Below are positions 3,620 to 53,071 of a stretch of DNA of 64,000 nucleotides, in pieces (position 1 is the stretch's first letter; the number at the start of each line of letters is the position of its first letter). Made by a program: the position numbers and the translations under genes. The DNA is from Eledone cirrhosa (taxonomy: Eukaryota): positions 32,984,001-33,048,000 of the forward strand of contig OZ024745.1 of the NCBI GenBank assembly GCA_964016885.1. Direction: 5' to 3'. A model generated the notes under the pieces. The model had not been told where the DNA came from, did no database searches, and saw only the letters and a list, made by a program, of their open reading frames with translations.

Positions 3620-3800
3620 AATTGTTTCTACTTTTGGCACAAGGCCAACAATTATCCCAGTACATTACTGGTACTTTATTTTATCGACCCCGTAAGGATG
3701 AAAGGCAAAGTAAACCTCGGCGGGATTTGAACTCAGACCGTAAAGGGACGTAACTATGCTAGAAAGCATGGCGTCCGACTCTCTACCGATACTGCAATAA
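3620..3800 (-). mobile_element. tRNA-derived SINE (abundant family)
   Basis: Minus strand has an A/B-box-like head (..CTGAGTTCAAATCCCGCCGAGG..) and a body CCTTTCATCCTTACGGGGTCGATAAAATAAAGTACCAGTAATG shared by many copies in the window. Confidence 0.8.
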
Positions 3801-11482: not shown

Positions 11483-11554
11483 GGCTCGTTGGTCTAGGGG
11501 TATGATTCTCGCTTCGGATGCGAGATGTCCTGGGTTCAATTCCCGGACGAGCAC
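11483..11554 (+). pseudogene. Degenerate tRNA-Pro(CGG) copy
   Basis: Matches the copy at 13003 except for four substitutions, including the base 3' of the anticodon (G37A) and an acceptor-stem mismatch (GAGCAC vs GAGCCC). Confidence 0.75.
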
Positions 11555-13002: not shown

Positions 13003-13074
13003 GGCTCGTTGGTCTAGGGGTATGATTCTCGCTTCGGGTGCGAGAGGTCCCGGGTTCAATTCCCGGACGAGCCC
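13003..13074 (+). tRNA. tRNA-Pro (anticodon CGG)
   Basis: GGCTCGTTGGTCTAGGGGTATGATTCTCGCTT-CGG-GTGCGAGAGGTCCCGGGTTCAATTCCCGGACGAGCCC gives a canonical cloverleaf. TTTTT Pol III terminator at 13085-13089. Confidence 0.97.
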
Positions 13075-17448: not shown

Positions 17449-17636
17449 TAATTGTTTCTACTTTAGGCACAAGGCCAGCAATTACCAGTGCATTACTGGT
17501 ACTTTATTTTATCGACCCTTTAAGGATGAAAGGCAAAGTCAACCTCGGCGGGATTTGAACTCAGATCGTAAAGGGACGTAACTATGCTGGAAAGCATGGC
17601 ATCCGACCCTCTACCGATACTGCCAATACACCGCCC
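17449..17636 (-). mobile_element. tRNA-derived SINE copy
   Basis: Family body and head. The flank TTTAATATTTAAAATAAT is duplicated on both sides, like a TSD. Confidence 0.8.
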
Positions 17637-19684
17637 TTTAATATTTAAAATAATGAGGCAAGTTGCATTTGGCCTTGAGATAGCGTTATTATATAGCTTC
17701 AGTTAAATGCACAAATATAGTCATCAGAGATGATTGCATGTGATGTATAGGAAAGTGAATGGGAGGTTGAAATTGTAAGATTTAATTTTGGAGCAAGATA
17801 GAAATTTCACAAAAAAAAATTTCATTGTTTGGGACGAGATGCCAGATTTGAATTTTTTCATGAAAGTGATAAATTTTGATCTCTGCCAAAATTTATAATT
17901 TACTGAGAAATGACAATTAAAAACAAACTAGGTAACTAGAATGTACTTTGCTCTATATTATTCAAGTCGGGACAAATCAGTTTTCAAGGGGGTCCTTCTT
18001 GGTGATCTATACAAACACTCAGTATAATGTGGACTCTTCAGCTGTGACAAGCATAACACTAGTGCTGGAGCCTCAATAAAATGCACTTGTTAGAAAGACA
18101 TTGTATTCAAACCAAAGGCCCATCTGACAAACTAGCAGCTCCACCTACTGGTAAGAAGCACTAAATTATGATTTTGCTGACCTTATTGTAGTAGCTCCTT
18201 TTAGTTTTTCAAACTGTACATAAAGATCTTATGTAATACCATGAGCTCCAACAAATCTATGTCTACATGTACTATTAGTGTGCTGATGTGACATTTGGTT
18301 CAGCATATTCAGCTCTTGATAAGATCGTGGTTCATATAGTCGGAAACACTTACCAAACAAGGGAGGTGATTATATTTATAGGATAGACTTATGGGTGTGA
18401 TATTGAAGACAGTATGGTGCAGTTTGAAGGACACACAGGTCAGGTATCTTAAGCTGGCAGAGTACAGAATGTCACCAATCCTTGTGCTTCTTTTCAACCT
18501 TTACTACATCTTAGATCACCAAGATTTATGTACTTAATACAGCTGTCATCATCCAGAGTTCGTTCCAAACCAAGTTTTTCATTCAACCAGCCTACACAAT
18601 ACTTTCATTGTTTAGCCACCACAAATCTGCAAATAGCTCATTGCAATGCAGTGTTTTTCACATAACACTTAGGTGGGCAATGGTACAAAGCTTCTGAATT
18701 TGAAACCTACTACAGCTATTGTGACCAATAACCTAAGTAACAAATTCTAGTGAACCTTCCAGTTGAGTTGATCTATGCTGCATACAAAGTGTATCTCCTG
18801 TTAATTTACCGGTAATACCATAACATTTTTTTTTTTTGTGCCAAGATTATATTAAGTCCAGAGTTGTTTCTAACCAACTCACAAAAGGTCAAACTAGGCC
18901 ATTTTCCAGCATCATGTCACTCTCTACTTTAAACCTTTGTCCAGCAGGTGGAGAGTTGTCAGAACAGATCCAATAATTTTGGTTTCAAAGCTACTAACAA
19001 CCAAAACTCGTCATGTGGGATGTCACTACTGTAAGCCAGTGTCCAAGGCTGCAAAAATAGAATACCATATTCAGGGTGACACAAAGTCACTAGACCTTTT
19101 CCAAAATATAACCTTTATTCACTGTAGATTAATTGTATCTCAATTCTGAGATACGACAGGGACAGAGTTATATTACTCCAAAGAGGAAACCCATTTTGAC
19201 TGCTTGCATTTACTTTCTTTCAGCTATTACCAAAGATCCATGACCATAGATAGGTTATGGGTTGGCACAAATAGTGAATTACCTCTTCTAATTACTGAAT
19301 GCTTAGGCTGGCACATTACTGTACCAGCCCCTACACTAGCTTCCTGCCCTCCGAAGGGTGCAAACTGTAACCTAGAACAGAACAATTACAGGCAAGGAGC
19401 AGGACTGGACCTAGTGGAAGAGGCTATTCAGGTGTGCTGCTGTAAATGACTGCACAGACAGTTTAAAAAAAACTTATTTACACCCGCGTTTTTGTGAGAT
19501 GGGTAGTCGGTACTTAATTTTGAGTTTCAACAGCTGTATACCCTTCCAACACTTTCCTGGGCATATTAAACCATTTATCAAACTGTTTTTTGGAACAGAA
19601 ACTATATTCCTAGTGCTTAAACTATCATAATTTCATGTTAATTATAACCCTAATGTAGTCAAGAGCAATGTATATTACTGCAGT

Positions 19685-19784
19685 TGAGGACTCAGACATC
19701 CAAGAAAGGAAGGTAACCTTCATAGAACATTTCTCTGGTGGAAACCGCGAACAAATAAGTTCATCATCATCATCATCATCCTCA
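19685..19784 (-). ncRNA. SNORD14: U14 box C/D snoRNA, copy A
   Basis: Box C within (ATG)n, domain A TTCGCGGTTTCCAC, domain B CCTTTCTTGGATGT plus box D CTGA, terminal stem TGAGGA/TCCTCA. Confidence 0.88.
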
Positions 19785-20112
19785 TGACAGTAGTAAAAAC
19801 AAAAGTATTAGGCTTTATTCTTACTGTTAAACCAACCATGGAAATGTCTACCACTCCAAGCAATTATATGAATTCTAGTCTTGGCAGACGTTAATCCCTT
19901 AAAATGAATGCTACCAATTGTCCGATATATTAAAAACATGGTAGTACTCTTCTCCAGAAATATCTATATTTAAAATAAAGTCTCCCAATTTTTTTTTTAA
20001 ATTTGTTAATAAATAGGAAAATCACCTAGGTTTGTTTGAATCCAGCTAAATAACCGTTGATGTGAAAATTTGATAGTGATCAATAAAAAAAATTGTGCAA
20101 GTGACAGCTGTA

Positions 20113-20211
20113 GAGAACTCAGACATCCAAGAAAGGAAGGTGACCTTCATAGAACATATTTCTCTGGTGGAAACCGCGAACAAATAAGTTCAAAACATCA
20201 TCATTGTTCTC
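20113..20211 (-). ncRNA. SNORD14: U14 box C/D snoRNA, copy B
   Basis: GAGAAC-A-ATGATGA..TTCGCGGTTTCCACCAGAGA..CCTTCCTTTCTTGGATGT-CTGA-GTTCTC matches U14 architecture, with 18S-complementary domains A and B. Confidence 0.92.
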
Positions 20212-20636
20212 AACAGCTGACCTTTGGACAATTCTCTTTGGAATGTTATAATGGAAATTAAGGAAATCTATCAACGGTCACAATAGCAGAAAAATTTGTT
20301 AAATGTCGACAATCTCCAATCTCGCCAGAGCAATAACAAATATTAAATGAATCAACCATCATTCTATATAATGCATGTTATGATTTCGACCACTTATTCA
20401 TGGAAAGGGGTGGGGGTCCTTCAACACTCCTTCCAGAAGCAAGTTTGCAATTGATCTGGCTGGATCCCCAAACGAGACCAGAACTCATGGATATTATCCA
20501 ACCACCTTGCTCAGAGTCCATCCGTGTCTCTCGGTTGATTTTGTCTGTAAAATCTGTCCAGAGACAAAGTTGTGATCTATCAAGAAAATTTTAAAAACAG
20601 CCACGTATCATGTCAAACCTATAGTTAGTTCTGTGA

Positions 20637-20736
20637 AAGGGAATTCAGACATCCAAGAAAGGAAGGTGACCTTCATAGAATACATCTCTGGTGGAAACCG
20701 CGAACAATAAGTTCAATTCGTCATCATAATACCCTT
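20637..20736 (-). ncRNA. SNORD14: U14 box C/D snoRNA, copy C
   Basis: Box C 20721-20727, box D 20645-20648, domains A/B intact, AAGGG/CCCTT stem. Confidence 0.92.
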
Positions 20737-21149
20737 ATATACAGACTGATTAACAAGTAGCAGAACATCTAAAGTTCACCCGTAAACGCACGCTTGATAT
20801 CTAATGTTGCTTGTTCTTATTTCGGAAACTTTAAATGTAACGTTCTAAATACCAGTTTATCATGGGGAAACATTTGGCTATGAATTCAAACCTAAGCAGT
20901 GATATTTCATTAGAAATATGACAAAAAGGGCTAATGCGGAAATACTCTAACCCTACGTGTTTCTGACATCTGTCGAATATCTACAATAGAAATTGTTCAC
21001 AGAATCACCCTGCAGAGAGCTGTTTAACATTCATTTGTATTCGGTATTCATCCAGTAAAATAAAGATCAATTAAATCAGCCCCTAGGTTAGAATGGTTAA
21101 GTGTAGGCGATATCTCAGCATTGCAAGATATTCGAGATTCTCAATGTAA

Positions 21150-21330
21150 TAATTGTTTCTTTTGGCACAAGGCCAGCAATTACCAAGTACATTACTGGTA
21201 CTTTATTTTATCGACCCCGTAAGAATGAAAGGCAGTCAACCTCGGCGGGATTTGAACTCAGATCGTATAAGGGGACGTAACTATGCTGGAAAGCATGGCG
21301 TCCGACCCTCTACCGATACTGCCAATCCAA
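21150..21330 (-). mobile_element. tRNA-derived SINE copy inside the snoRNA cluster
   Basis: Family body and head. Confidence 0.8.
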
Positions 21331-21569
21331 GCTTCACAGTGGAGAACAGTCGTAAGGAATGATGTTGGTATGGCTTGTTTCGTGTATATATTTCCATTAT
21401 TTTGTTAGTTTTACTGTGGGTAGCAACGTGGTTGTCTTGCTGACACTAGCGATCTCTTGAATTTCCAGGCCAAAATAAAAAAAAAAATTAATTTTTACAA
21501 TACCATACGACCGGGATTATGAGATTCCTCTATAAGTGGAATAATTTGGAACAATTTATACCGATTAAA

Positions 21570-21668
21570 TGAAGGGAATTCAGACATCCAAGAAAGGAAG
21601 GTAACCTTCATAGAATACATCTCTGGTGGAAACCGCGAACAATAAGTTCATCATCATTATACCCTTCA
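21570..21668 (-). ncRNA. SNORD14: U14 box C/D snoRNA, copy D
   Basis: Box C 21651-21657, box D 21580-21583, TGAAGGG/CCCTTCA stem, domains A/B intact. Confidence 0.92.
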
Positions 21669-21790
21669 ATAGAGCGATAGTGTCATATGTGTTGAGATAA
21701 AAGGGAAAAGGCACGAGTCAAAACATCAGAACATACGCAAAAAAGAAACTAATGGTATTTAATTAACCCAATTAATTATATGCTGCAGTA

Positions 21791-21889
21791 GAGAACTCAG
21801 ACATCCAAGAAAGGAAGGTGACCTTCATAGAACATATTTCTCTGGTAGAAACCGCGAACAAATAAGTTCAATACATCATCATTGTTCTC
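21791..21889 (-). ncRNA. SNORD14: U14 box C/D snoRNA, copy E
   Basis: Box C 21876-21882, box D 21797-21800, GAGAAC/GTTCTC stem. One C>T change in domain A (GTTTCTAC). Confidence 0.9.
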
Positions 21890-22135
21890 AACATGAAAGC
21901 AGCAATAATTCTAAAATCCACATCGAGGAAAGGACAATATTGAGGCCCCCAAGTTGACATCAGCGGGACTTCAACTTGAACTCAAGTCGTAACCAAATAC
22001 CGTAAAGCATTTTATCCGATGCTCTACCGATTCAGTCAATACCCCTATCCCAATTTCAATTTCATTAGTAGAATCTATAATGAAAACCTGTTACACGGAA
22101 CGATGTTAAGACTATCCGGGAATATAGTTCTGTGG

Positions 22136-22236
22136 AAGGGAATTCAGACATCCAAGAAAGGAAGGTAACCTTCATAGAATACATCTCTGGTGGAAACCGC
22201 GAACAAATAAGTTCAGTCCATCATCATTATACCCTT
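22136..22236 (-). ncRNA. SNORD14: U14 box C/D snoRNA, copy F
   Basis: Box C 22221-22227, box D 22144-22147, AAGGG/CCCTT stem, domains A/B intact. Confidence 0.92.
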
Positions 22237-22422
22237 GTATACATAGTTGTAATAAAAGTATCAAAATACAACCGGGATGTGATATGAAACATGTAGCAGA
22301 AAATGAAATTGCAATCATGTACATACAATATATTGAACACATTGCGATGTCTACAAAACAAAACTAATTTTAAAATGGTTATAAACTTTCATACATCAAG
22401 CCATCTACAACTCAGTATTTAC

Positions 22423-22490
22423 ACCAATCAGTTAACAACAATTCAACAACAGTTTCAGAACAGGTCTGTGAAAATTATCATCATATTGGT
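22423..22490 (-). ncRNA. SNORD25: U25 (snR56-equivalent) box C/D snoRNA
   Basis: ACCAA-T-ATGATGA-TAATTTTCACAGACCTGTT-CTGA(D')..CTGA(D)-TTGGT. The guide TCACAGACCTGTT is complementary to the conserved 18S sequence AACAGGTCTGTGA. The D'+5 rule gives the G equivalent to human 18S Gm1490. Confidence 0.88.
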
Positions 22491-23086
22491 AAAATACTTT
22501 AAACATAGCTACGAGCTGATATACAATGTTTACATGTCTTTCAGTTAGATTCAATGTCGACCCAGCAACAAAATTATAGCCTTTTGAAAACGGAGATTCT
22601 TCTTCTTGAGATTCTTTTCGAAACATGCTGTATATCATTGGTTCTTAACCAGGGGGGGGGGGGGGGCATAGAAAGTTATTGCTTGAGCCACCGGAATTAT
22701 CTAGAAATCAAAAAATTTTATGCATAAAAAAGAAGAGTTTCCTAACAATTTTTTCTTGCTTCAAATTATCAACTTTCTAATTATGAAATTACTTCACTTG
22801 ATAATCATTTTAAATCTGGATATAACAATTCATGTTTTAGTAAATAAACTTAGTTTTATAACAGGATATATTTATTTTAGTAAATTTCTCATTGACAAAT
22901 AAAGCCATGCCGAAATTATTTCTACATAAAAATATTATACAAAAAAAGCTTGAGATAGGATCAAATATAGCAGTATCATGAAATAAATAGCCAATGCATA
23001 CCGAATACTTTTTCCTAGCAGCACTTACATTTACACGCAAGACCATGGAACCAGCTTTTCGAAAGACAAACCACCAACTAATAAAA

Positions 23087-23172
23087 GTATTGAGGTCAGG
23101 TACTGTCTAGTAACGCTCACTGATGTTGTCACATCTCATGAAACCCAGTTAATATTCATCATTCCTCAATAC
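23087..23172 (-). ncRNA. Box C/D snoRNA, candidate snR65-like guide for LSU rRNA
   Basis: Perfect 9-bp terminal stem GTATTGAGG/CCTCAATAC, box C ATGATGA (23156-23162), box D CTGA (23096-23099). D-guide CTAGACAGTA against the conserved LSU sequence TACTATCTAG gives 9/10 pairs. Confidence 0.8.
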
Positions 23173-23706
23173 ACAGCCAAAGATTTTTAATCACCACATT
23201 TTTCTAAAGCAATCATGTAACCATTTCCTAAATCGCATATATGCCTAAGTAATCAAATCCATGCCACTACCATAAATGAAACCGTAAGGGCGAGTCGGCC
23301 GCGTGGTCCCGGAGGGCATGATGAAGACATTTCCTCGGAAGACGGCAAGACGAACTGGAACATACATCAACCTCGCACCTAGAAGCAGCCAATTCCTCTC
23401 AGATAGCAGAGATGTGGTACCCGAGAGCGAAGAGGACTGGAAGTAAAGAACCAACAAAGAGCAACGAAAGAACGAAAATTTAAACAAAACTACTATTCTT
23501 CACACAATTCAGCTGAAACACCTAATTCAAGTAACGAATATCATAGTTAATACTATATATCGGGATTTTTTTTAATCGACATTCATCCCTCCTGGTAAAC
23601 TCGACGTCACCAACTGCTGATGCTGTTAACATCTGAAATATAAAATAAACACCCAACTGTAAAAGCAGAGGAGTCATTTCAAACATTTATAATATAGATA
23701 TATAAC

Positions 23707-23835
23707 GACTGTGGCAAGGTCTATACAATATACGACATATATATATCAATTAGTGTATAAACCTTGCCTAATATAATATAGCAATTATTTTACACAGTCA
23801 TTCAACAAATGAGGACTGCTCTAGCAAAATTGCAA
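23707..23835 (-). ncRNA. Box H/ACA snoRNA, candidate guide for the LSU uridine equivalent to human 28S U3830 (legacy numbering) / yeast U2347
   Basis: Hairpin 1 has stems GCAATT/AATTGC and GCAGTC/GACTGT with pocket TTGCTAGA / GTAAAAT. H box ATATTA lies 14 nt below the pocket apex. Hairpin 2 GGCAAGGTTTATACA/TGTATAGACCTTGCC is followed by ACA plus 3 nt. About 129 nt. Confidence 0.8.
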
Positions 23836-24387
23836 TCAACGAGTCTTTAACAAACAAGTCTCTTTACCCACGTGGAGAACTCAAACGTGTATAAAATAAA
23901 ATTCCCCATTTCATAGGCTCCCCCCCTTAAATTGAAGACTCCCTACAATTTAACATTTCATGTTACTAATACTATCTTAAATAACATTTCATGTTACTAA
24001 TACTATGTTAAATAAATTACAATTATTTACTGCGAATGACTACGATGTTCTATAATTAATAACGTCATAGAGCCATTAACAATGTACAGCTATAATTATT
24101 CGCTAAATATAACTACTTTTAGCCAATTTAATAATTAGGAGCCCAGCTCACATGTGTTACTACACTTCATATATTTCTAAGATTGCATCTGTTAAAATAA
24201 TTAAATATCTCTCTCTATATATATATAAAGATAAAATTAATCTATAATAATTAACAACTAACCCAGGATGAATGCTAAATTAAGCCTCTCTTATTTAAAA
24301 TATAAATTTGTGGTGTAAAAGTTAAGCGTTTAAAAGTATAAAGCAGGAGGAGAACTTACAAGATGTTCACAGGTGGACGGTCCTCAG

Positions 24388-24420
24388 CGAAAAGGCTGAA
24401 GTCAGTCCAATACCGGAAGT
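24388..24420 (-). promoter_or_regulatory. TCT (polypyrimidine initiator) promoter with ETS/GABP-type site
   Basis: Minus strand ACTTCCGG (24420-24413) about 20 nt upstream of CCTTTTC, which matches YC+1TYTYY. This arrangement is typical of ribosomal-protein and snoRNA host genes. Confidence 0.6.
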
Positions 24421-26476
24421 TGAAAATTTAGGCGCAAACTATGAAATATTTAAAATATAAAAGAGAAAATAATAATTTCTTCAAAGAAATATATAAACCT
24501 ATATTGTAATTAAATATGTTTTTTAAAATATTACAAGTATTTATAGTGCATAATAAAATATAATGATTTAATTTCAGAAAATCAAACTTAAATTATTTTG
24601 TTTCATACTAGTCAGGACTTCTAAAACTACTTCCGGAATTCTGTTCTAGCAAGCTGCTGCTGCTGCTTTTTGTCGTCAATATCATTGTCCCTAGGTTATC
24701 CATTAGGTTCTATGACAGATTGCTCTCCCCTCTCCTTCTCATCTCAAAATCTTGCGATTTTTAAACTTTCATTTCATTTTAACACCAACGTTAGAAATTA
24801 TAAATTAAAAGGGAAATAATTTAACAATGCTCTTAAAACAAGATAAAATAACTTTCACAAAATTTGAATCCATTTAATGTAACAATTATAAAAAAAATAT
24901 TCATTCTCTTGTATTTAGTGCAGAAAAATTTACTTTGACTAAGTATGATAAAAATTTGCGTTAATTTCCTCAGATATTAGAGACATCGACATTTAAGACG
25001 GAACTACTCTTTCTTAAGAATCATTTATTTCCTCAACGGGACATAAATATTCATAATATATGTTTACACTCAATAGTCAATAATGTTTTTATCATATAGA
25101 TCTATATATTGCTTTTATTTTTCATGAATAGAAAGAGAAAGTGATCATTCACTTCGTACTACGTAGGTACTTCCGGTTTACCCCTCCACGTCGTTTTCCT
25201 TAATAATTCATTTCGTTTTTTGCAGCCAACGTTGTAAGTGGAATTCTCTTTTAATTTTGTGAAGAGACGCAAAATAAATACGTCAAGGAAGGACTTACAT
25301 TTTGATTTGTTATATTTCCCTATATAATTACTGAGTAATTTTTCTTTATTTAATTTCAGAACTACAAGTCAACATTCACGTGAAGGTGTCAATCGTCATA
25401 ACAGTTAGCTTTAATCTCATTGCGGAGAAATGTATCTTCATCTTACATTAAACCTCGTGGCTTAGTGGTTAGGATGTCCGCTCACAGTCTTAGGTTCCAT
25501 TCAGTGAGGCACGTTGTGTCCTGCAGGACATTTTATTTTACTTTGCTCCACTCCACTTATCTAACAAAAATAGGTCTTACCTGTAACTCCCTTAGAACAT
25601 AGTTTGGATATACTTGTCAGTGGAATGCTCGGGTACCTTTTACGTTAATTTCACGAGCCAACTTCTTATGCAGATATAACCTCATCCTGTAGACTAGCAT
25701 AACTTGAATACAGTCATCTACAGGGCAACTCAAAACTAAGGCCTCTCTGCACATGATCACTTTATATATGGTAGCCCTTTCGTAGTTAAAATTGCACGTA
25801 AAAATAGAAGTCACAACTTCGATACACATTTAAGGTACTGTTCACGAATGTGAGACCCTGTAATTACTACACACATTTAATATCTTAAAAGCCCCTCCAA
25901 ATTATAGACAAACCTTCACTTTACCAACGTCTCTGACACACCGATATCCTGTTTCATCTATATCTCTTCTACCACTACACAGAGCCAATGCGATCTGCTA
26001 GATATAGCAGCCAAATTTCTCTCCAATCACATTCAATTAATTAATGATCTATTTGGGGGAATTATTTATTTCATAGTTATGTAAAATTGTTCGAGTATTT
26101 TAATTTAAGTAGAAACCCTTTAAAATTAGTCATTTTGTTTCACAGCCATGATAGTATCAAAAGCGTTAAGATCACAGTTGGAGTGTCTGGTCTTTCCTCT
26201 CCATAACCAACTCTCAGTGCCAAAAGTAGAAACAATTATTTTTATTATTATCGCACCTATCCGAGATAGGTTTCTCCATCCGAGTTCAAAACACCAATCT
26301 CAGAGACGGGGTTAATACAAATTTACCGTTTTCTTTACATTTTATAGAAGTTTAAGCTGAACATCATCACACAGAACATTTATTTGTGTGTGGTTTACGC
26401 CCGTTTTTTACTCTATATATACATAGGACTAGATGTATAAAAATACAGTTGTTGCTACTAAAATATTTCTACTCGT

Positions 26477-26613
26477 TGCAATTCTGTTCGAGCAGTCTTC
26501 ATTTGTTGAATGACTGTGTATATTGATTGCTATATTATATTAGGCAAGGTTTTATACACTTATTGATGTATAATGTTATGTACTTTGTATTTTGTATAGA
26601 CCTTGCCACAGTC
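26477..26613 (+). ncRNA. Paralogous H/ACA snoRNA copy (diverged or pseudogene)
   Basis: Reverse-complement homologue of 23707-23835. Both hairpins, H box ATATTA and ACA-GTC are retained; pocket sequences are changed. Confidence 0.65.
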
Positions 26614-26683
26614 GTAGTCGTCGTTATATGTCTGTACTTTGTGTAAATATTTAAACAATGTATCATATATTATCTAGTTGTTA

Positions 26684-27115
26684 TACCAGGTTGAGTCAAA
26701 ATATTTTTCGGATTTCCGCTGATAGTTTTTGGCAACTTGTATCTCCATATATCATTAATACAACTTGTCCAATCGTTGCTAAATTATTTACTCCTTATTT
26801 TACAGGAGCCGTTTTACTCTACCTGTGGTAAAAAGAGCTGAGTGCAAGGGCAGTGGCAAAATATATTAATGATGTGGATGGTTCAAGAACTGTCAAAGAG
26901 CGCATGGCACAAAACTGGTTCACACGTTTCAGGGAAGTTGACACCAGTCTCGAAGACAGACCAAGATCAGGGGGACCATCTGTTGTGAAAGATTAGGCCT
27001 TGCTTGAAACGGCCAACCACGAACGCTCGTACATTGTCGGTAGAACTTGATCCTTCACAAAGCATCATCAATCAACATCTCAATAAACTCAGCCTTGAGA
27101 ACAGACGCTGATACT
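26684..27115 (+). mobile_element. Mariner transposon 5' remnant
   Basis: TA-CCAGGTTGAGTC TIR-like start. Translation 'RTVKERMAQNWFTRFREVDTSLEDRPRSGGP' is a mariner helix-turn-helix region, with an in-frame stop. Confidence 0.75.
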
Positions 27116-27442
27116 CCTAGAGGCAGTTCCATAGTCTAAATTGTTTCTACTACTGCGCCGTTGAAGTACTGTATTTATTGTTTGTGGTTGTCACTAGAGA
27201 TATATTTTATGGGGGTTTCTTTCTACTCATGTTGGTGTGTTTATATATGTATGCTGATAACAAATAAGTACCCAGTCCATCCTGTATGGTGGTGGTGTTG
27301 GTGACACAAATAGCATCCAATCCACTCTGTAAGCTGATCATATTTGTCTCATGACAAAAAGCACCTAGTCTACCCTGTTAGATGGTGACACGATAAATAA
27401 ATACCCAATCCACCCTGTAAATGCGCTTGGCATTAGGAAGGG

Positions 27443-28181
27443 GGCGATATCCAATTTTAGTGGACTAAATGCTGCTTACGTGCTGTAGTTGCTGTTTACT
27501 TCAATGTATGAGGCTATTCCAACAAATTTACATTCCCCCTTTTTTTTAGCCGTTAAAAGAAATATAGATTTTTTTTTGCGATTTATTTGCCACTGGGGCA
27601 TAGATTTCTTTATTTGCCCCTTTTTTGTTTGTTTGTTTTTTTGGCGATTTATTAGCCTTTTGGGGTCACACACACCCCCGTAGAAAGTGTGCGACCTTTC
27701 TGCCAGGGAGTACATAGAGAGGGGGGGTGCTCCCTTCTCTTACCTGTACAAGCCGATATAGAGAGATGGCCCACTTACACGGACAATTATTGCTACTTTC
27801 ACCCGAAAAAGGCACTCAGTCCCAGCCAATTCCATGAAAGATGGGTAAAAGTAGCAATAATGGCCCGTGTAAGTGGGCCATCTCTCTATATCGGCTTGTA
27901 CAGGTAAGAGAAGAAGGGAGCACCCCCCTCTCTCTGTGCTCCCTGGCAGAAAGGTCGCACACTTTCTACGGGGGCGTGTGTGACCCCAAAAGGCTAATAA
28001 ATCGCAAAAAAAGGGGCAAATAAAGAAATCTATGCCCCAGTGGCAAATAAATCGCAAAAAAATAAAAATAAATAAATCTATATTTCTTTTAACGGCTAAA
28101 AAAAGGGGGAATGTAAATTTGTTGGAATAGCCTCATACATTGAAGTAAGCGGCATTTAGACAGCTAAAATTGGATATCGCC
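27443..28181. mobile_element. 739-bp foldback (fully palindromic) non-autonomous DNA transposon
   Basis: Termini GGCGATATCCAATTTTAG / CTAAAATTGGATATCGCC; arms pair to the centre (~27800-27845); 8-bp TSD AGGAAGGG (27435-27442, 28182-28189) within a retroposon tail. Confidence 0.9.
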
Positions 28182-28457
28182 AGGAAGGGCATCCAGCCAT
28201 GAAAACCAAGCGAGAAACAGTCATGTATGAGCAAGACAGTCACCTGATCTGATTTGTCTTACAATGGGGCAACTCATCTAACCCATGCTGGCGTAGAAAA
28301 TAGATGTTAAACAGTGATGATGATTCTCACCAACAAAGTATTAGCTTGCTTCTAATGAGATATTATTATAGTCCTTTTGTTAGTTTTGCTGCAGCTATCT
28401 ATCAAGTACTATACCCCAGGAATTGTTACTGGGGTTTAGTATTTCTAGTACTCTGTT

Positions 28458-28557
28458 GAAGAGTATTATAATATATTGAACTTATTGTTTGCAGTTTCCA
28501 ATAGAGAAATGTTCTATGAAGGTCACCTTCCTTTATTGATACATTTAACTACTCTTC
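28458..28557 (+). pseudogene. U14 snoRNA pseudogene (paralogue of copy F)
   Basis: TGAACTTATTGTTTGCAGTTTCCAATAGAGAAATGTTCTATGAAGGTCACCTTCCTTT. Boxes C and D are lost. The downstream flank resembles the copy-F flank (..TATT.CCGGATAG.CTT..). Confidence 0.8.
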
Positions 28558-28615
28558 CATAGTTGTATTACCGGATAGGCTTGATGTGAACATGTTTGGT
28601 GTAAGATTCTTTTTT

Positions 28616-31044
28616 AGGTTCTCAACGGGGGGGGCATATGCACCCCCAGGGGGCGTTTGGAGATTTGGAGTGCACTGGAAGGCTCTTTACTTTGGTAAGT
28701 TTTATAAGCCATATTTGTATGTCTTTGAGACAGCCAGTGTGAATGCATTTGAATGAGCATGCAGACAGCATAACTATGGTCTGACCGCAGGTGTGCAGGC
28801 CTGTTTAGACATTAACCGGCAATTGAGATCCTAACAATGGAAAATCCCACAGTCAACTGGGTCAAGGACACTTCAATCGCAGCCAGTTAGAATCTTGTTT
28901 TTCCTTCACCGATAACAATGTATTTCATGTCTGAAATTATTGACTCTACCGTAACGAGTTAACACTATGTAGATCTATTTTATTTCCTATTGTATAAATA
29001 ATATTACAAATAAAAAAAAGAAGAAAAAACACAGAAGTGGGTAGCACACACATCTAGGACCACATACAACACATAAGCAGGTAATACACACATCTAGGAC
29101 TATATGCAACACATAAGGAGGTAGCACACACATCTAGGACCACATACAACACACAGGCAAGTAATACATACATTTAGGACCACATACAACACAGGCAGGT
29201 AATACAAACATCTAGGACCACATACAACACATAATCAGGTAATACATACATCTAGGACCACATGCAATACATAAGCAGGTAATACATCTAGGACTACCTA
29301 CAACACACAGGCAGGTAATACATACATCTAGGACCAAATACAACACATTGTATCGTGCTACGGACGACGCAATGGTCAGCCAACATAAGGGTTTCGTCAC
29401 TCTTCTGAAGAGAGAAAATCTATCTGTATTTGTTGTTCATTGTGTCATTCATCGACAACACTTGGCTGTGAAGAAACTCAGCAAGCCACTGAGCAAGTCC
29501 TTGCAGGTGGCCCTTGATGTCATCAATTTGATCAAACGGCATTCCCTATGAACGAATTTTCCGGCAACTGTGCCAAGATAATGACAAAGAATTCGTCAAA
29601 TTGTTCCTTCATAATGAAGTGAGGTGGCTTTCAAAGGGAAACTGCCTTACTCACTTCTTTGAACTGTTTGACTCTATTATTGAGTTTCTGCGAGGACGCA
29701 ACACAGAACTGTACAAGAAAACCCTCGATGTGAGGCAAAACTGCGCCTACCTCACCGACATCGTCAACAAATGCAATAGCATCATTTTGGCTTTGCAGGG
29801 GAAGAAGATCATCTTGCTTAAAGCAAGGAATGCTGTGAAAACATTTCTGGCCAAATTGAATGTCATCGAAAGGAATCTTTGTTGACGAGAATTCTATAAT
29901 TTTCCTAGTGTCGCCAATGTTCAAAACATTGTAAGCGATGACCAACTCCAAATTTATACCGCTCACCTCCGTGCGCTACAAGACAACAAGGAGAGAACGG
30001 TTTGTCGACCTTTTGCCGATGGACATCCCAATGTGGGTAGCAGATCCCTTCACACCTAACGTCGATGATTTGGACGTTATATTTCAGGAAGAATTCATTG
30101 AACTTCAAGCAGATGACATGATCAAAATTAGATTTCCCAAAATAGGTGAACCCCTTTTTGGATGCAAGAGGAAATTCAGCGTCGATTTCCACACCTACAT
30201 GCAGAGGTTAAGAGATTTGCTCTGCCTTTTCCAAGCTCATACTTAGTCAAGAGGAGGTTTAGTGCGGTTTCCAGACTGCACAGTAAGGCTCGCAACCGCT
30301 ACAATGTAATTACATGTGGAGATCTCCGGCTACATCTTACAAAAAATCCAGCCTCACGTCAAAGAGTTAGCTAGACTCCATAAAGTTCAAGGGTCCCATT
30401 GAAATGAGGTCAAAGTTAAAGTAAGTTGATTTATCCGAAAACTTAGATATGCTATTGTTACAAAGCAAACTAACAATTTTTTATATTTGAAGTTGCAGTC
30501 TGACTGGACTGGAAACCATCTACTACAATTCACTTACTCATTTGTTGTATATATTTTACCATTTACTAATAAATATACCCTCCCGCGTGGTCATGAAAAC
30601 CCTCTTCCGTGGTCTCTAAGCTCACAAAGCAGAGGGGACATCAAGTTAGATATCAACATTTATTCTGTCCATTTCATTAAAGGGAAAATTGGAAAGCTTT
30701 GAAATGATATAATTGCCACTTTCTTCTAGATAAGAGCACTCTTTGGATAGACAGAGTTGCTCTTGTATAAATGTTCAAAATAGTTGGTATCGTTGGTGGG
30801 AATATAACAAATTCAACTGGTCCTTATTCATAAAAAAGAACATTTATGTTCCTTTTTTTGAAATTTATATATTTCCCTTCAAGGAATATATTTATACTCT
30901 CAGCTGCCTGCAATGGTATCTTTGGAATATTGTTAATCAATTTTTTAGTAATCTACAGATATCAAAATCAGTAGTATATTGAAAAATGGGGGAGGGGGCG
31001 TTTCGTGATTTCGAGGTTTGGCCTAAATGGGTTGAGAACCTGTG
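28616..31044 (+). mobile_element. Degenerate hAT (Buster/Charlie-type) DNA transposon
   Basis: TIR-like AGGTTCTCAAC / GTTGAGAACCT. Transposase fragments 'HCVIHRQHL', 'HNEVRWLSKGNCL' and 'LPFPSSYLVKRRFSAV' at 29350-30400, with frameshifts and stops. Confidence 0.85.
29039..29348. repeat. ~38-40-bp minisatellite, ~8 copies
   Basis: Unit GGTAATACACACATCTAGGACCACATACAACACATAAGCA, inside the hAT element. Confidence 0.9.
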
Positions 31045-31243
31045 ATGTAGATCATAGCTTCCACATATATACAAAATGATGGTTGATATGTTTCATATTT
31101 ATCAGTAATATTCTCTATGCTGCTATTACTGCTCTGCTGGTATCGACATTTTGCCATTTATTCTCAATACTATTTCCACACCATTGATAGATTTCACTTT
31201 TCATTATAACATTTCAAAGAGAAAGGAATAAGATTTATTGATA

Positions 31244-31336
31244 TCAGCTATTGAACCCATTTGTTCGTGGTTTCCACCAAAGGAATGTTCTATGATCACC
31301 TTCATATCTTTGATGTTTAAATTCACTCCAGCTGTC
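31244..31336 (+). pseudogene. U14 snoRNA pseudogene (paralogue of copy B)
   Basis: TTGAACCCATTTGTTCGTGGTTTCCACCAAAGGAATGTTCTATGATCACCTTC. Box C is deleted and box D mutated. Upstream flank ~31075-31225 is homologous to the reverse complement of ~20230-20365. Confidence 0.8.
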
Positions 31337-33235
31337 AATTGTCAATATTTTTGCCCCTCTTTTTGTTCACCTTATTAAATTAGGTGTTTTTAGTGATGGC
31401 TGGATAGGTCTTTGATAGAACTTTCAGCTGTCTTTTTGATTATGACACAGCATGAAAAATGAGTGATGATATTGTGGTCATCATTGACTGGATGACTTAC
31501 TTTTGAATACACACAATGTGTGTCTGATTGTGAGGCCTAGTATTAATTTACTATTGTTTAATGTTAAGAAATATCAAAATCATTTTCCATCCCTCCACAG
31601 TCCAAGTCTTTATTCATTTTACTATCCTAGATGTTTGAAGAATAACATCTCACTTGTGTTCCATGGCAGGGCTGTACAGAATGTACTGGGTGTGTTTTAT
31701 CACAGTACCAGCACTAGAGAGGGTTATCGCATCCCTGACTTACCTTGTCTCTATTTGCCAACCATGTATTTTAAATTGCCATGTTCCCTTAAAAACTAAA
31801 AACTTTACCTTGTGGAATTGGTGATGGTAAGTAATAGTGATAGATGTCAATGATGAGTTTCATGGAGAATGGTGACAAACGGTTAATAGAAAAATTGAAT
31901 GTGGGCTGACCAAATTAAATGCCATCCCATGATATGTAGGCAGTAAATAGAGGAGAGCAGTAGATGGAGATTTGACAAGAATGTACTGGCCAAAAGATCG
32001 AATGTAGATATATATCCAAACCTCCATCCCCCACCACCATTTTAATTTTTGCCATGCTTCCTTCCACCAGTAAGGGAGTTTCTCCAGCTTCGCATGTCAC
32101 CACTCATCATGGTTCTTTAACATCTTTGTGATGTTGAGTTTTTCAAATCAATCCTAAGTCTCCTTTTTGCACAGGTTTCAAACACTTGGCACTTTCTACA
32201 TACATCACATGCCAGTATTAACAGTCTTCTCTTCTTCCACACAACTAATTCCTCTTGTATCCAGTAGTTTAACCCAGTATGGAGATTCCAGTTAAATCTT
32301 TAACAACTAAACTAACCTTCCTGTTTGTCAACATGAAATATTAGGCTGTTAATTAGTTCTATAAATTTAGTATTAATTTAACCGTTTAGCATTTTCATTA
32401 GTCTCTATTTACTATTGTATTTTCACAGTAAATACTTTATCTCACATAATATCAAATTTTTGAGATTTTGAGAACAATGCCTTAACATCGTATGAGTGGC
32501 CGGTTACAGCCAGTTTGAACAGAAAGAGGTGAGGGAATTCTGGCTGGATACAGCAGGTTTGAATGCTAAAGGGTTAAGGCAGATTTTATTTGGCGTACTT
32601 GTTTGTTTTTCTATGGTGACTTGATTGGCATCTTCTAGTCTTCGAGAAATGGCCCGAGACCTAATTTATAAGTTATCCTCAGTGATATTGCTATCAAAGT
32701 TGTTCCTATGTACATAGGTTGAAGCGTACTAAGAGTATGCACCACTTTGCCCCTATGCTCTTACACTCCCACCCTACACTGTAAATTGGTCATTTTGGTG
32801 CCACAACAAAAAGCACCCAGTCCACACTGTAAATGCGGTTGGCATAGGAAGGGCATCCAGCCATAGAAACCAAGCCAGAAACAGTTCTGTGAGCAAAATA
32901 TATCACCTGGCCTAACTTGTCTCAAGTGGGACAATTCGTCTAACCCGTGATAGCATGGAAAATGGACATTAAACGATGAACGAGCAGCTTGTTGGCACCA
33001 CAGTGATTCACACCAGTAATTTCTCATAGTGAATGTTACTACCCCTTGGAGATGCTGGGAATCTCAGTGATACTAAAAAGTAGCAGAGTGTGGTAAAGGA
33101 GGAAAAAGTCGAAGATGTAGTAGTTACTCGTAAAATCTGCCACCTTTAGTTATTCAATAAATCTTTTATTTTTTTTAAAATTCAATTTATCAACTTGTTG
33201 GGTAGTCAAACGATATATATTCTCTTTAGAGAAAT

Positions 33236-36060
33236 TATCATCATCATTTTGGCACTTCTTAACCCATCGGTCATCCTCCATGCGCATCATATGTCCATAC
33301 CATCGCAGTCTCCTCTCTCGCACACTACAATCTATCCCTCTCAACACATCCATGCTCGGTTGTTCACGCACATTAACATTGTACATCCAACAGAGCATGT
33401 TTGCCTCATTTCTCTCCAGCCATTGCCTATCCTCTGCAGTTGCTGCCCATGTCTCACTACCATGCAGCATCGCGCTCCTCACACAGGCATCATATAACCA
33501 GCCTTTCGTACGCAGGAAGAAACCCTTCGTCAGCAGAGGAAGCAGCTCCCTTAACTTCTTCCAACCCGTCCTTATTCTAGATACTATGGCCTCAGAACAC
33601 CCCCTTCCCATGCTAATCTGATCTCCGGAAGCTATCAACCACTTCTATAGCACCCACCTGCATTTGAAAAATGTGTCTATCAATGCGACTTCTACTGTCT
33701 AATTTCCCTGTACATCTACTGCATACGTATTTCTCCCTACCTGTTAGTTTGCCTGCTATCTCACTACATCTCTTGTGTACCCAAGATCTGCATTGTGTGC
33801 ATTTTATAGAATTTATGCCATTTCCTTTTCTGATAATCGAACATGGCCATTTCCCTGACGGAAAGTTTTGTCCTCTTTTCTACTCTTTTGTCTTAGCGAG
33901 GTTCACTCTCAGTCCTCTTGATTCCAACTGCTGTTTCCATAGCCAGAATTTATTCTTTAGCTCCTCTACTGATTCTGCTATAAGAACCAGATCATCAGCA
34001 TAGAGAAGTTCCCATGGACAGCCAGTCTTAAACTCCTCTGTTATAGCTTGGAGGACTATAATGAACAAGAGTGGACTGAGGACCGAACCCTGATGTACTC
34101 CTACTTGTATCTGGAATTCCTCACTAAACTCCATTCCTACCCTCACTTTACTGACAACACCTCTGTACAAAGTTTGCACTGTCCTCACAAGCCATTCCTC
34201 AATACCCAGCCTCCTTAGGGACCACCAGATGACAGATCAGAGTACCCTATCAAAGGCCTTCTCTTGGTCAACAAAAGCTAAGTATAGTGGCTTATTCTTC
34301 TCTAAGAACCTCCCTTGTAATTGTCTCACCAAGAAGAGGGCATCTGTTGTACTTTTCCCAGGCACAAAACCAAACTGCATCTCATCTAGTTTGACCCTTT
34401 CTCTAATTAGTTGAGCTAATATCCTTTCTGCCACTTTCATAACCTGATCCATCAGTTTTATACTTCTATAATTGCTCCTCTCCAGAGCATCCCCTTTACC
34501 TTTGTAGCAATTTATGAGAATACTACTGCACCAGTCTTTGGGTATGACACCGCCATATATAGCCTGATTGATGATGCGTGCAACCAGTTTAGTACCTACA
34601 TCCCCTGATGCCTTCAGCATGTCAGCAACTATCCCCAACGGCCCAGCAGCCTTACCATTTTTCATTTCCTTAATCGCCTCTTGGACCCTATATTCAACAA
34701 TCTCAATAGCTGATCCCTCTGTTGGATCTACTGAGGTTAATTTCTCTCTCCCATTCGTCAGTCTCTCATAATGACATTTCCAGGCCTCCTTTTTCTAATC
34801 ATTTGTGATACTAAGTACACCGACATCATTCCGGGCACATTTATCTCCAACAACATACTAATTTGCATTGACACACTGCCTTGCAATGTGGAACACTGCA
34901 CGTCTGTGATCTTCCCATCGCAGAACATTGGCAAACCTCCTACTCTCAGCCTCCCTGCGTGCTAAGTACACCTGACGTCTAGCTGCTCTCTTAGCGGCTG
35001 TATATCCTTCTCTACTCCCACCCTTTTTCCAAGCCTTCCATGCTAGTCTTTTGTCTCTAATGGCCCTATCTACCGTGCTGTTCCACCACCAGGTCACTGT
35101 CTGGTTGGAGCTCTGCTCCAGCCACAAGTTTCATCAGTAGCCTGCAGTAAGTTGTCACATAAGAAATTCCTGTTATCATTTATGTCATACGTCTCTAAAT
35201 CGTCTTCTTTTTCGTCATGCACATCTTGAAGGGCTTTCCTAAATTTGTATTTTAGTGAAAGGTCTTTTAGCTTCCAGACCTTTCTTCTCCACACCTTGTA
35301 TGTCTCATTCCGTCTCTTGCTTACTGAAATATCACTAACGACTAACCTATGCTGTGGGGTACATTCTTCCCCAAGGTATGCCTTGGTATTGGACACCACC
35401 TGCCTGTCCCGCTGCCTAACTAGTAAGAAGTCAATCTGGCTTATGTGCTCGCCTTATTTGTAGGTTATTAGGTGGTTGGCAGGTTTCTGGAAGTTAGTGT
35501 TGCAAATGGTTAGTGTACTTGCATCACAAAATTCAAGAATTATCACTCCATTTCTTGATCCATAACCGTGCCCACCATGTACCCCAGTGTAACCATCCTG
35601 GAGCTGTCCAACATGACCATTGAAGTCCCCTGCTAGCATAACAATGTCTCCGTCCTCTGTCATTGCAGCTGTTTGTAAAAGTTGCTCATAAAAGCAGTCT
35701 TTCTTTTCTTTACCCAGGCCTGGGGAGCATAGGCAGAGATGATTGTCAGTAGTCTCCTGCCTACAACTAATCTAAGCTTAATTATTCTATTATTAACTCA
35801 AACTACCTCTATTGTCTTATCAATCCATCTCTCAGCCAGGAAAATGCCTATCCCCCCTAACCCATCATCCTTACCTACCCAGAAAAGCTTATAACTAAGA
35901 TGTTTGCCTGTGATTAGTCTCGCAGAAGCACCTCTCCATCTCACCTCTTGCACGCAGCACACATCCACATGCCTTCTTTCCAGCATCTCCGCTATTTCAC
36001 CAGATCTACCTGTGAGAGTGCTAACATTAAGTGTTGCAACTCTGAGCCACAATACGTAAT
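33236..36060 (-). mobile_element. RTE-clade LINE, near-complete ORF region but frameshifted
   Basis: APE endonuclease motifs 'ATLNV', 'VQEVRW', 'GDFNGHVG'; RT motifs 'QFGFVPGKSTTDA', 'GVHQGSVLSPLLF', 'LYADD'; C-terminal 'RRLRWYGH'. Confidence 0.92.
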
Positions 36061-47958: not shown

Positions 47959-48119
47959 TAATATATATATATATTATATATATATATATATATTATATTT
48001 CATTCCTTTTATTTTGATCATGCTTTATTTTTATTTTTAATTCCATTCGCACCATTTCCTTTCGCTATATGTCTCTCCACCACTCCCCTACACACCCTTT
48101 GAACTCTGTTCCCACACAC

Positions 48120-48210
48120 TTCTCACCTGAGGAAGGGCTTATGCCCGAAACGTCGTTCCCCACCACCACCCCACTCTCCAGAGCGTGAAATTAATAAACA
48201 TTCGTTGTAC
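48120..48210 (+). ncRNA. Hammerhead-like core in a Penelope-type terminal repeat
   Basis: CTGAGGA-A-GGGC-TTAT-GCCC-GAAA-CGTCGT, then AATAAA at ~48193. A stem I partner is not obvious. Confidence 0.45.
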
Positions 48211-48254
48211 TGCCTCTCTGTTTTGTTCCTGTACAAATTTTTCCATTATATTAA

Positions 48255-48289
<35 letters not shown>

Positions 48290-48981
48290 TTATAATATAT
48301 ATGTATATATCATATATATATACATTATATATATATCATATATATATCATATATATATAATATATATATAATATATATATAATTTATATATATATATATA
48401 ATATATATATAATATATATATAATATATATATAATTTATATATATATATATAATATATATATCATATATATATCATATATATATCATATATATATAATAT
48501 ATATATTATATATATATCATATATATGTAATATGTATATCATATATAATATATATATTATATATATCATATATATGTAATATATATATCATATATATGTA
48601 ATATATATATCATAAATATGTAATATATATATCATATATATATAATATATATATCATATATATATAATATATATATAATATATATATCATATATATAATA
48701 TATATATTATATATATCATATATATTATATATATATTATATATATCATATATATTATATATATCATATATATATATATTATATATATATATATTATATAT
48801 ATTATATATATATCATATATATATCATATATATATAATATATATATAATATATATATATTATATATATATTATATATATATTATATATATATATCATATA
48901 TATATCCTATATATATGTAATATATATATCATATATATATATGTATATAATATATATATAATATATATATAATATATATAT

Positions 48982-49035
<54 letters not shown>

Positions 49036-50486
49036 TATATATATAATATATATATATATCATATATATATAATATATATATATGTAATATATATATCATA
49101 TATATATATCATATATATATAATATATATATATTATATATATATCATATATATTGTAATATATATATCATATATATATATCATATATAAATAATATATAC
49201 ATATTATATATATATCATATATATATATATATATATATCATATATATATCATATATATATAATATATATATATATATCATATATATATATCATATATATA
49301 TATTATATATATATCATATATCATATATATATACTATATATATATTATATATATATATCATATATCATATATATATAATATATATATATTATATATATAT
49401 CATATATATATATATATATATCATATATGTATAATATATATATATCATATATATATAATATATATATATATAATATATATATATTATATATATATCATAT
49501 ATATATCATATATATATATATATATTATATATATATCATATATATATATATATCATATATATATATATATGATATATATATATATATATATCATATATAT
49601 ATAATATATATATATTATATATATATATATATATCATATATATATAATATATATATATTATATATATATATATATCATATATATATAATATATATATATT
49701 ATATATATATATATATCATATATATATAATATATATATATATTATATATATATATATATATATCATATATATATAATATATATATATTATATATATATCA
49801 TATATATCATATATATATATATTATATATATATCATATATATAATATATATTTATATTATATATATATCATATATATAATATATATTTATATTATATATA
49901 TATCATATATATCATATATATATATATTATATATATATCATATATATAATATATATTTATATTATATATATATCATATATATCATATATATATATATTAT
50001 ATATATATCATATATATAATATATATTTATATTATATATATATCATATATATAATATATATTTATATTATATATATATCATATATATATCATATATATAT
50101 CATATATATATATTATATATATCATATATATATCATATATATATATTATATATATCATATATATATCATATATATATCATATATGATATATATATATTAT
50201 ATATATATATATTATATATATGATATATATATATAATATATATATATTATATATATATAATATATATATATTATATATATCATATATATATCATATATAT
50301 ATCATATATGATATATATATATTATATATATATATTATATATATGATATATATATATAATATATATAATATATATATATTATATATATATAATATATATA
50401 TATAATATATATAATATATATATATTAATATATATATAATATAATATATATATATTAATATATATATAATATAATATATATATATT

Positions 50487-50519
<33 letters not shown>

Positions 50520-50765
50520 ATATATATATATTATATATATATCATATATATAATATATCATATATATAATATATATATATCATATATATAATATATATAT
50601 ATATATAATATATATATATATATAATATATATATATATATAATATATATATATCATATATATAATATATATAATATATATGTATCATATATATAATATAT
50701 ATATATAATATATATATATATAATATATATATATCATATATATAATATATATATATCATATATAT

Positions 50766-50798
<33 letters not shown>

Positions 50799-50822
50799 AT
50801 ATATATATAATATATAATAAAT

Positions 50823-50854
<32 letters not shown>

Positions 50855-51131
50855 ATATATATATAATATATATATAATATATATATATATAATATATAAT
50901 ATATATACAATATATATATAATATATATATATATAATATATAATATATATACAATATATATAATATATATATATATATAATATATATAATATTAATATAA
51001 TATATATATATAATATATATAATATATATATAATATATATATATATTATATGTATTATATATATATATATAATATATATATATATTATATATATATATTA
51101 TATATATTATATATATATATTATATATTATA

Positions 51132-51262
51132 CGCCAGTGAAGGCGTGTGGCTGAGTGGTTAGAGGATTGGATTCGCAATCGTAAGGTTGTGAGATCGATT
51201 CCTGGACCAGGCGATGCGTTATGTCCTTGAGCAAGGCACTTTATTTCACGTTGCTCCTTCTA
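51132..51262 (+). mobile_element. tRNA-like SINE head embedded in the TA satellite
   Basis: GGCGTGTGGCTGAGTGGTTAGAGG..GAGATCGATTCCTGGACC..GTCCTTGAGCAAGGCACTTTATTTCACG. Confidence 0.7.
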
Positions 51263-52045
51263 CCTATATAATATATATATATAATATAATATATATATAT
51301 AATATATATATATATAATATATATATAATATATATATATAATATAATATTTATATATAATATATATATATATAATATATATATAATATATTATATATATA
51401 ATATATATATAAATATAATATATATAATATATATAATATAATATATATATAATATAATATATATAATATATATATATAATATATTATATATATAAATATA
51501 ATATATATAATATATATAATATAATATATATATAATATAATATATATAATATATATATATATATATTATATATATAATATATATATATATAATATATATA
51601 ATATATTATATATATATATATAATATATATAATATATTATATATATAATATATTATATATATAATATATAATATATATAATATATATATAATATATGTAA
51701 TATATTATATATATAATATATATATATATAATATATAATATATATAATATATATAATATATAATATATATATTATATATATATATATTATATATATAATA
51801 TATTATATATATTATATATATTATATATTATATATATTATATATATTATATATATAATATATTATATATATTATATTATATATATAATATATTATATATA
51901 TTATATATATAATATATTATATATATTATATATATAATATATTATATATATTATATATATAATATATTATATATATATATAATATATATAATATATTATA
52001 TATATAATATATAATATATATAATATATTATATATTATATATATA

Positions 52046-52141
52046 ATTGTTTCTACTTTTGGCACAAGGCCATCAATTACCCAGTACATTACTGGTACTT
52101 TATTTTATCGACCCCGTAAGGATGAAAGGCAAAGTTAACCT
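52046..52141 (-). mobile_element. SINE 3' half embedded in the TA satellite
   Basis: AATTGTTTCTACTTTTGGCACAAGGCC..GGCAAAGTTAACC family body. Confidence 0.8.
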
Positions 52142-52734: not shown

Positions 52735-52793
<59 letters not shown>

Positions 52794-52929
52794 ATTATAT
52801 ATATATATAATATATATATATATAATATATATATATATAATATATATATATATAATATATATATATATATATAATATATATATATATTATATATATAATA
52901 TATATATATAATATATATATATATAATAT

Positions 52930-52961
<32 letters not shown>

Positions 52962-53039: not shown

Positions 53040-53071
<32 letters not shown>

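Follow-up and report, generated by a model that had tools for sequence, protein, structure and literature searches.

The window, that is, the whole 64,000-nucleotide stretch of DNA that was analysed, carries on its minus strand a C/D snoRNA and an H/ACA snoRNA whose guide elements both match the same uridine of this genome's 28S rRNA, U3784. The two genes lie 534 nt apart, in agreement with the spacing of about 0.5 kb given in a preliminary description of this DNA. Their parts are as follows.

23172-23087, minus strand: C/D snoRNA with a 9-bp terminal stem; its D guide is predicted to methylate 28S U3784
23162-23156, minus strand: box C of the C/D snoRNA
23110-23101, minus strand: D-box guide CTAGACAGTA, a perfect 10-bp complement of 28S 3781-3790
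23099-23096, minus strand: box D of the C/D snoRNA, with a single spacer C between guide and box
23835-23707, minus strand: H/ACA snoRNA of two hairpins; its 5' pocket is predicted to guide pseudouridylation of 28S U3784
23820..23829: 5' pocket strand, 8 nt, or 10 with two lower-stem bases open; pairs with 28S 3786 onward
23787..23793: 3' pocket strand, of which the first 3 nt alone pair contiguously, with 28S 3781-3783
23779-23774, minus strand: H box, 14 nt past the 5' pocket
23712-23710, minus strand: ACA box

Targets were sought in the 18S, 5.8S and 28S rRNA of this genome (3.0 Gb), in which the 18S is 2,876 nt long and an uninterrupted 28S copy 5,114 nt. These rRNA lengths, the size of the genome and its repeats suggest a coleoid cephalopod. 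Three of the four fetched 28S copies carry a 1.23-kb insertion (L002 5202-6439; also L003 and L004) that ends just before TAGCCAAATGCC, presumably the target site of the R2 retrotransposon; in L004 the junction shows a short duplication of upstream 28S. The insertion has no Rfam intron match and is likely to be a non-autonomous or truncated R2-type element.

The RNA at 23172-23087 has the attributes of the box C/D class: a box C (RUGAUGA) near the 5' end, a box D (CUGA) near the 3' end, and a terminal stem. An antisense element of this class should span at least 10 nt and place its target at D+5. Here 10 of 10 pairs to 28S 3781-3790 are Watson-Crick, none is G-U, and the D+5 base (23104) faces U3784, the very uridine matched by the H/ACA pocket, as had been proposed. 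U3784 is the top site of the guide, with a score of 10.0 against 7.0 for the runner-up. Perfect complements in this rRNA exist for 751 of the 127,982 10-mers of the window (0.6%). The window holds 38 box C-box D pairs, 15 of them with a guide score of at least 9: twelve rows from six U14 genes, the snR56-like RNA, the U3784 C/D RNA, and a 9-bp match at 26370 that is probably due to chance. The C/D snoRNA is single-copy in the genome by DNA and pattern searches. A target for its D' guide was rejected, the best matches being 9 bp including 3 G-U pairs, and so was a weak Rfam similarity to snoU2-30 (26.7 bits), as the C/D body has no complement of at least 8 bases to U2 or U6.

Next to the target uridine, yeast and human rRNA have an A, which would oppose a C in the guide. 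All four fetched 28S copies of this genome instead have a G, reading CTATCTAC-T-GTCTAGCGAAACC, and this G pairs with the guide's C to give the perfect 10-bp duplex that had been suggested as a check. The duplex energy is -15.0 kcal/mol with G in the rRNA and -8.8 with A. This shows an apparent joint change of guide and rRNA at one base. In the rRNA itself the G is a tolerated wobble, since its partner in a long-range helix is U.

The RNA at 23835-23707 has the hairpin-hinge (ANANNA)-hairpin-ACA-NNN architecture of the box H/ACA class, and its fold (-42 kcal/mol, z -5.14) is matched in stability by none of 200 shuffles. The pocket of its 5' hairpin forms 8-10 plus 3 bp, leaves Psi-N unpaired and stands 14 nt from box H. 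The top site is again U3784, with 10+3 bp including one G-U, or 8+3 bp if the lower stem is closed; the 3-bp arm flagged earlier as a weakness is real. The score of 14.5 at U3784 compares with 9.5 for the next site, and addition of this genome's U2 and U6 to the scan gave no better site. None of 300 shuffled pockets reaches 14.5, the best scoring 14.0. That the match is coincidental, and that the RNA guides some other substrate (U1, U4, U5, minor snRNAs) or none, is very improbable: the best shuffle does come near the observed score and the scan covered rRNA, U2 and U6, but out of 1,779 rRNA uridines the pocket selects one that is an established pseudouridine site and also faces D+5 of the neighbouring guide. 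U3784 is thus ranked first by both guides and G stands in four of four copies, so neither an A in the 28S nor a clearly better target among the RNAs scanned, either of which would have counted against a common target, was found.

In the 3' hairpin of the H/ACA RNA, registers 13-21 nt from ACA were scanned against rRNA, U2 and U6; the best score was 9.5, no convincing target emerged, and U3786, the equivalent of human Psi3832, was outside the top matches in every register. A generic H/ACA scan of 18000-33000 returned five rows: this RNA twice (in two H-box registers), a paralogue, and two weaker candidates. A genome pattern search for another H/ACA RNA with a longer 3' arm for U3784 gave 5 matches against 4 in the control, and the four distinct loci were rejected, their folds having no pocket hairpin. 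The SNORA62/E2 covariance model (RF00091) has no local match at E<=5, and a genome-wide SNORA62 search, one without a working positive control, was blank. In composite C/D-H/ACA scaRNAs of the U85 type both box sets lie in a single RNA with an snRNA target. Such an identity was rejected for this locus, where there are two separate RNAs 534 nt apart with no U2 or U6 target.

At gathering thresholds, Rfam identifies only two tRNAs in the whole window. These are related genes on the plus strand, 11483-11554 and 13003-13074; the first scores lower, has several changes and is possibly a pseudogene. Neither the C/D nor the H/ACA RNA reaches a gathering score, and no family that would name them matches at E<=5; the snR65 model (RF01204) has no match at E<=5 in 21500-26000, while yeast-type loci do match it. 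Relaxed thresholds bring out six U14 genes and a snR56-like RNA on the minus strand (19688-22488), in a block directly downstream of the C/D and H/ACA pair.

22410..22488, minus strand: snR56-like C/D snoRNA; D' guide with 12 bp to 18S G2444; Rfam RF01188 at 41 bits, gathering 54
22232-22140, 21887-21793, 21662-21576, 20732-20641, 20209-20115 and 19781-19688, minus strand: six U14 (SNORD14) genes, from relaxed Rfam

The six tandem U14 copies are intact and score below the Rfam gathering level (45-50 versus 64 bits). Their D guide forms 13 bp with 18S C613, and no coding host was seen. A SINE-like repeat of very high copy number (contig depth in millions) lies inside the cluster at 21147-21329 and again at 17449-17630.

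Several features point to a host transcript that begins upstream of the H/ACA gene.

24419-24413, minus strand: putative promoter motif, from inspection and a consensus scan
about 24395, minus strand: predicted pyrimidine-led start of a putative non-coding host gene
24359, minus strand: predicted first donor site, from a consensus scan
23632..23638, minus strand: 3' splice site predicted 75 nt downstream of the H/ACA gene, with a score under the cut-off of the acceptor scan; the exon would begin at 23632
23436-23260, minus strand: GC- and CpG-rich segment between the two snoRNAs, which may be an exon that follows an acceptor at 23437 or may mark a second start of transcription

In run X4, a 151-nt contig aligns to 23502-23632 with 20 unmatched letters exactly at the predicted acceptor, so that the end of the match at 23632 may hint at splicing. 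Position 23437 has 16 of 20 pyrimidines as an acceptor in the consensus scan. A strong donor is predicted at 23028, below the C/D RNA, where the scan is ambiguous as to the acceptor. The C/D and H/ACA RNAs are likely to be guides encoded in the introns of a single non-coding host. The transcript starting at about 24395 would be spliced, and trimming of its introns would release the snoRNAs. Non-coding 5'TOP snoRNA host genes are familiar from GAS5, UHG and the SNHG type. Such hosts, and the zebrafish host FP101887 as described in part of PMC7668251, share with this cluster many same-strand snoRNAs, tandem paralogues and a pyrimidine-led start, which here is a predicted one, as are the exons. 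This combination of snoRNAs was not described in the literature that was found.

The reading preferred here is that both minus-strand RNAs match U3784, are probably intronic in one non-coding host, and act as a predicted Um guide and a predicted Psi guide for that base; judged from the DNA alone, its probability is put at roughly 0.55. It is also conceivable, if unlikely, that both guides act on U3784 from separate units, the H/ACA RNA from the start near 24395 and the rest from one near 23436, their adjacency being an accident of snoRNA mobility. In keeping with this, of 23 bins the one at 23200-23399 is the richest in CpG (11 CpG, GC 0.47) and is preceded by a pyrimidine run, and snoRNAs are known to change hosts even among members of a single genus (PMC4515611, in part). 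On a rough estimate, with about 3 of about 100 C/D families in a host, the chance of a shared host is a few percent per doubly modified site, and for one base a few percent of genomes would show it by accident. Adjacency could therefore be due to chance and requires no special reason; as the scan was large, it is by itself no proof of selection. Two observations speak for one unit instead: 23437 also scores as an acceptor, and an inverted unit on the plus strand has the same order of promoter motif, H/ACA gene and U14 remnants, which fits a single H/ACA-U14 unit.

This divergent unit (25170-31330) mirrors the minus-strand cluster, with a promoter-like motif at 25170, a donor at 25234, an H/ACA copy, and decayed U14s; no remnant of the U3784 C/D RNA or of the snR56-like RNA was found in it.

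26476-26613, plus strand: H/ACA paralogue, inverted and 86% identical, with H and ACA boxes and stems intact and flanks that cannot be aligned
28442..28538, plus strand: decayed U14 copy, with no Rfam match at E<=1
31249-31327 and 27162-27223, plus strand: U14 remnants

Other repeats lie in the same region. Nested long inverted repeats at 27443-28181, with arms of up to 90 nt that are 89-100% complementary, resemble a MITE or foldback element. Stretches at 26830-27120, 29350-30400 and 33200-36050 are taken by eye to be decayed transposon pieces (mariner-like, hAT-like and minus-strand LINE-like), and a 40-nt tandem repeat (28991-29362) precedes the hAT-like piece. Further on, 48000-60000 has extremely low GC (2-12%) and simple AT repeats, with an island of GC 0.49 at 56001-58000.

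The 5' pocket of the paralogue has another best target, 28S U1650, with 6+3 Watson-Crick pairs. By context, this base corresponds to yeast Psi1040/1042, which is guided by snR33, and to human Psi1769. Around U1650 the rRNA of this genome differs from that of yeast at two bases, and the paralogue pocket matches both. In the first 71 nt, the paralogue differs from the H/ACA RNA at 5 of 15 pocket bases and at 2 of 56 others (Fisher p 0.004, for a span picked after viewing the alignment, which does not include the upper part of the 3' hairpin, where variation is higher). When five random substitutions were placed in the main pocket, 327 of 3,000 trials reached the score of the paralogue at some site, and 6 of 3,000 did so at U1650. 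The pair of paralogues is thus likely to reflect retargeting, after duplication, between two conserved pseudouridine sites, in either direction. The fit to U1650 and the concentration of changes in the pocket weaken the view that the plus-strand copy is a simple pseudogene, which keeps some plausibility because the plus-strand U14 copies have decayed. A precedent is SNORA6, which arose from SNORA62 by cis-duplication (PMC4515611, in part). A local duplication of an H/ACA gene is seen here likewise, except that the copy is inverted, lies 2.6 kb away, and differs by two pocket changes that would switch between two conserved Psi sites, the second being the snR33 site (human Psi1769).

By sequence context, U3784 is the equivalent of yeast U2347 and human Psi3830, as first suggested. 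The yeast base (U2345 in Taoka numbering) receives Um through snR65 and Psi through snR9, in reactions that compete (PMC5062969 and PMC5699541, each in part). Wild-type yeast has 9% U, 74% Um, 4% Psi and 13% Psi-m at U2347 (PMC5062969, in part). The human base is plain Psi3830, at 92-100% (PMC6182160, supplement), and SNORA62/E2 is its predicted guide (PMC4515611, in part). In Table S4 of PMC11014333, Um at this site is marked for yeast only, the entries for fly, human, mouse, frog, Arabidopsis and Dictyostelium being blank; tomato and tobacco carry the methylation as Um2350 in Table 2 of PMC11542601. Since yeast, tomato and tobacco have it and most mapped species do not, methylation at this site is old and patchy. 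A planarian RiboMeth list of 28S sites ends at 1600, and the main text of PMC7668251, on zebrafish, has no mention of '3830'. No U2347-type site in a mollusc was found in the accessible open-licence literature, in which the yeast pair is found.

The yeast pair resembles the present one in its target nucleotide by context, its two guide classes and its guide register. The systems differ in several respects. Here the two guides share one strand and are 534 nt apart, whereas at one snR65 locus (L020) Rfam finds no snR9 within 5 kb. The guide precedes box D here and box D' in the snR65 matches. Unlike in yeast, the guide base has changed to C along with a G in the rRNA, and Rfam snR65 or snR9 matches none of the RNAs at this locus. 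By its predicted target the C/D RNA is a putative functional counterpart rather than a demonstrated homologue of snR65. SNORA62/E2, known from human and sponge, is the predicted guide of the base equivalent to U3784 (PMC4515611, in part). It also guides Psi3832, whereas the 3' hairpin of the present H/ACA RNA has no match to the equivalent U3786 and RF00091 does not match it; its hosts are RPSA and FAU, whereas no coding exons were seen here by eye.

Relatives of the C/D guide were sought in metagenome contigs by the exact box C-guide-box D pattern, which returned 22 loci. The pocket scan covered all 22, and the Rfam scan 20 (all except L022 and L033). Rfam assigns three of the 20 to snR65 and one to a ciliate C/D family. 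D-guide RNAs with stems of 8-9 bp are encoded in L014 and L033. L033 carries, on its minus strand, two almost identical C/D RNAs in successive introns of an eIF2-gamma gene, and a third copy is in L014. The L033 exon scores 85 bits against one type of PDB chain, which we take to be mammalian-type, and 74 bits against another, presumably yeast-type. Since it is nearer to the former, other, probably animal, lineages may keep a U2347-type guide. Five loci with the C variant of the guide and stems of at most 4 bp (L015, L021, L024, L031, L035) may be chance matches. Six others (L017, L018, L019, L027, L028, L034) encode double-guide C/D RNAs with a second conserved element near box C, which by inspection complements rRNA just upstream of the U2347 site (yeast Cm2337 region).

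Eight aligned guide RNA sequences have no similarity beyond boxes and guide. The same holds for the comparison with plant Um2350 and the D-box guides of L014, L033 and the L017 type: they share the target uridine, and no further likeness and no linked pocket are seen. An H/ACA pocket for this base occurs in none of the 22 loci (67,516 bases, with 9 loci under 2.2 kb), in a scan that recovers the true pocket of the window together with two false ones. Linkage of the C/D and H/ACA guides is thus not seen elsewhere, on weak coverage. The accessible parts of PMC8817022, PMC11121408 and PMC8536713 contain nothing on such linkage. Nor was a report found in the accessible open-licence literature in which a C/D and an H/ACA guide for a single nucleotide lie side by side.

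If both RNAs act as preferred above, a fibrillarin RNP would pair with 28S 3781-3790 and a dyskerin RNP with 3781-3783 and 3786-3793. These footprints overlap, so the two RNPs could not bind simultaneously; they would act in turn and compete. Um, Psi and Psi-m would then coexist at this base, as they do in yeast under snR65 and snR9. The earlier statement that both guides are needed for a doubly modified nucleotide is therefore overstated: in yeast the two reactions are in competition and just 13% of molecules bear both marks, which makes a mixture the better expectation at U3784. The placement of the base near the peptidyl-transferase region also lacks support. We take the yeast site to lie in helix 61 of domain IV, outside the peptidyl-transferase loop. 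In the yeast table of PMC8307265 (seen in part), 25S-2347 has no functional-region label, while Gm2815 is labelled PTC.

Competition could also be one-sided. Most likely the C/D RNA with its perfect guide would then out-compete a pocket with a 3-bp arm, or else one of the genes might be a silent relic, and the base would be almost purely Um (or purely Psi). This is a doubtful alternative with some points in its favour: the short arm itself, the predominance of Um over Psi-m and Psi in wild-type yeast (PMC5062969, in part), the 3' hairpin with no good target in rRNA, U2 or U6, and the decayed snoRNA copies nearby. However, the total pairing of 11-13 bp and the 14-nt spacing fall within the pocket rule as quoted in PMC5062969 (9-13 nt of pairing in all, 13-16 nt from the box). 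Psi at the equivalent base is nearly complete in human and reaches 62% in S. pombe; the genome pattern search produced no other candidate guide; and neither RNA has lost a box or a stem.

A stronger proposal is that the pair is a selected two-guide unit, in which one transcript would deliver both guides at a constant proportion and thereby set the ratio of Um, Psi and Psi-m at U3784. A local duplication in inverted orientation, with two substitutions in the pocket that change the target between U3784 and U1650, would have supplied the H/ACA partner or spun off a second guide. This is speculative and rather improbable. If true, it would add a Psi-m site in an animal, one missing from the maps consulted, and would mean that guide retargeting has been caught within 3 kb.

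The mechanism as such is known from yeast, where snR65 and snR9 compete for this base. The chemistry is not new either; new are the methylation predicted for this animal, the adjacency of the guides and the probably retargeted paralogue. Loss of snR9 in yeast has no growth or ribosome phenotype (PMC5062969, in part), so the biological weight of this Psi is likely to be limited. The predicted ribose methyl at U3784 is missing from the mapped animals, in the tables for human, mouse, fly and frog. Nucleotides that carry both modifications as Psi-m are rare. A neighbouring, probably co-transcribed pair of guides in an animal would offer a direct test of whether the ratio of the marks depends on the supply of the guides or on which of them has access first, and the inverted paralogue may provide a small case in which the shift of an H/ACA guide to a new target can be tested.
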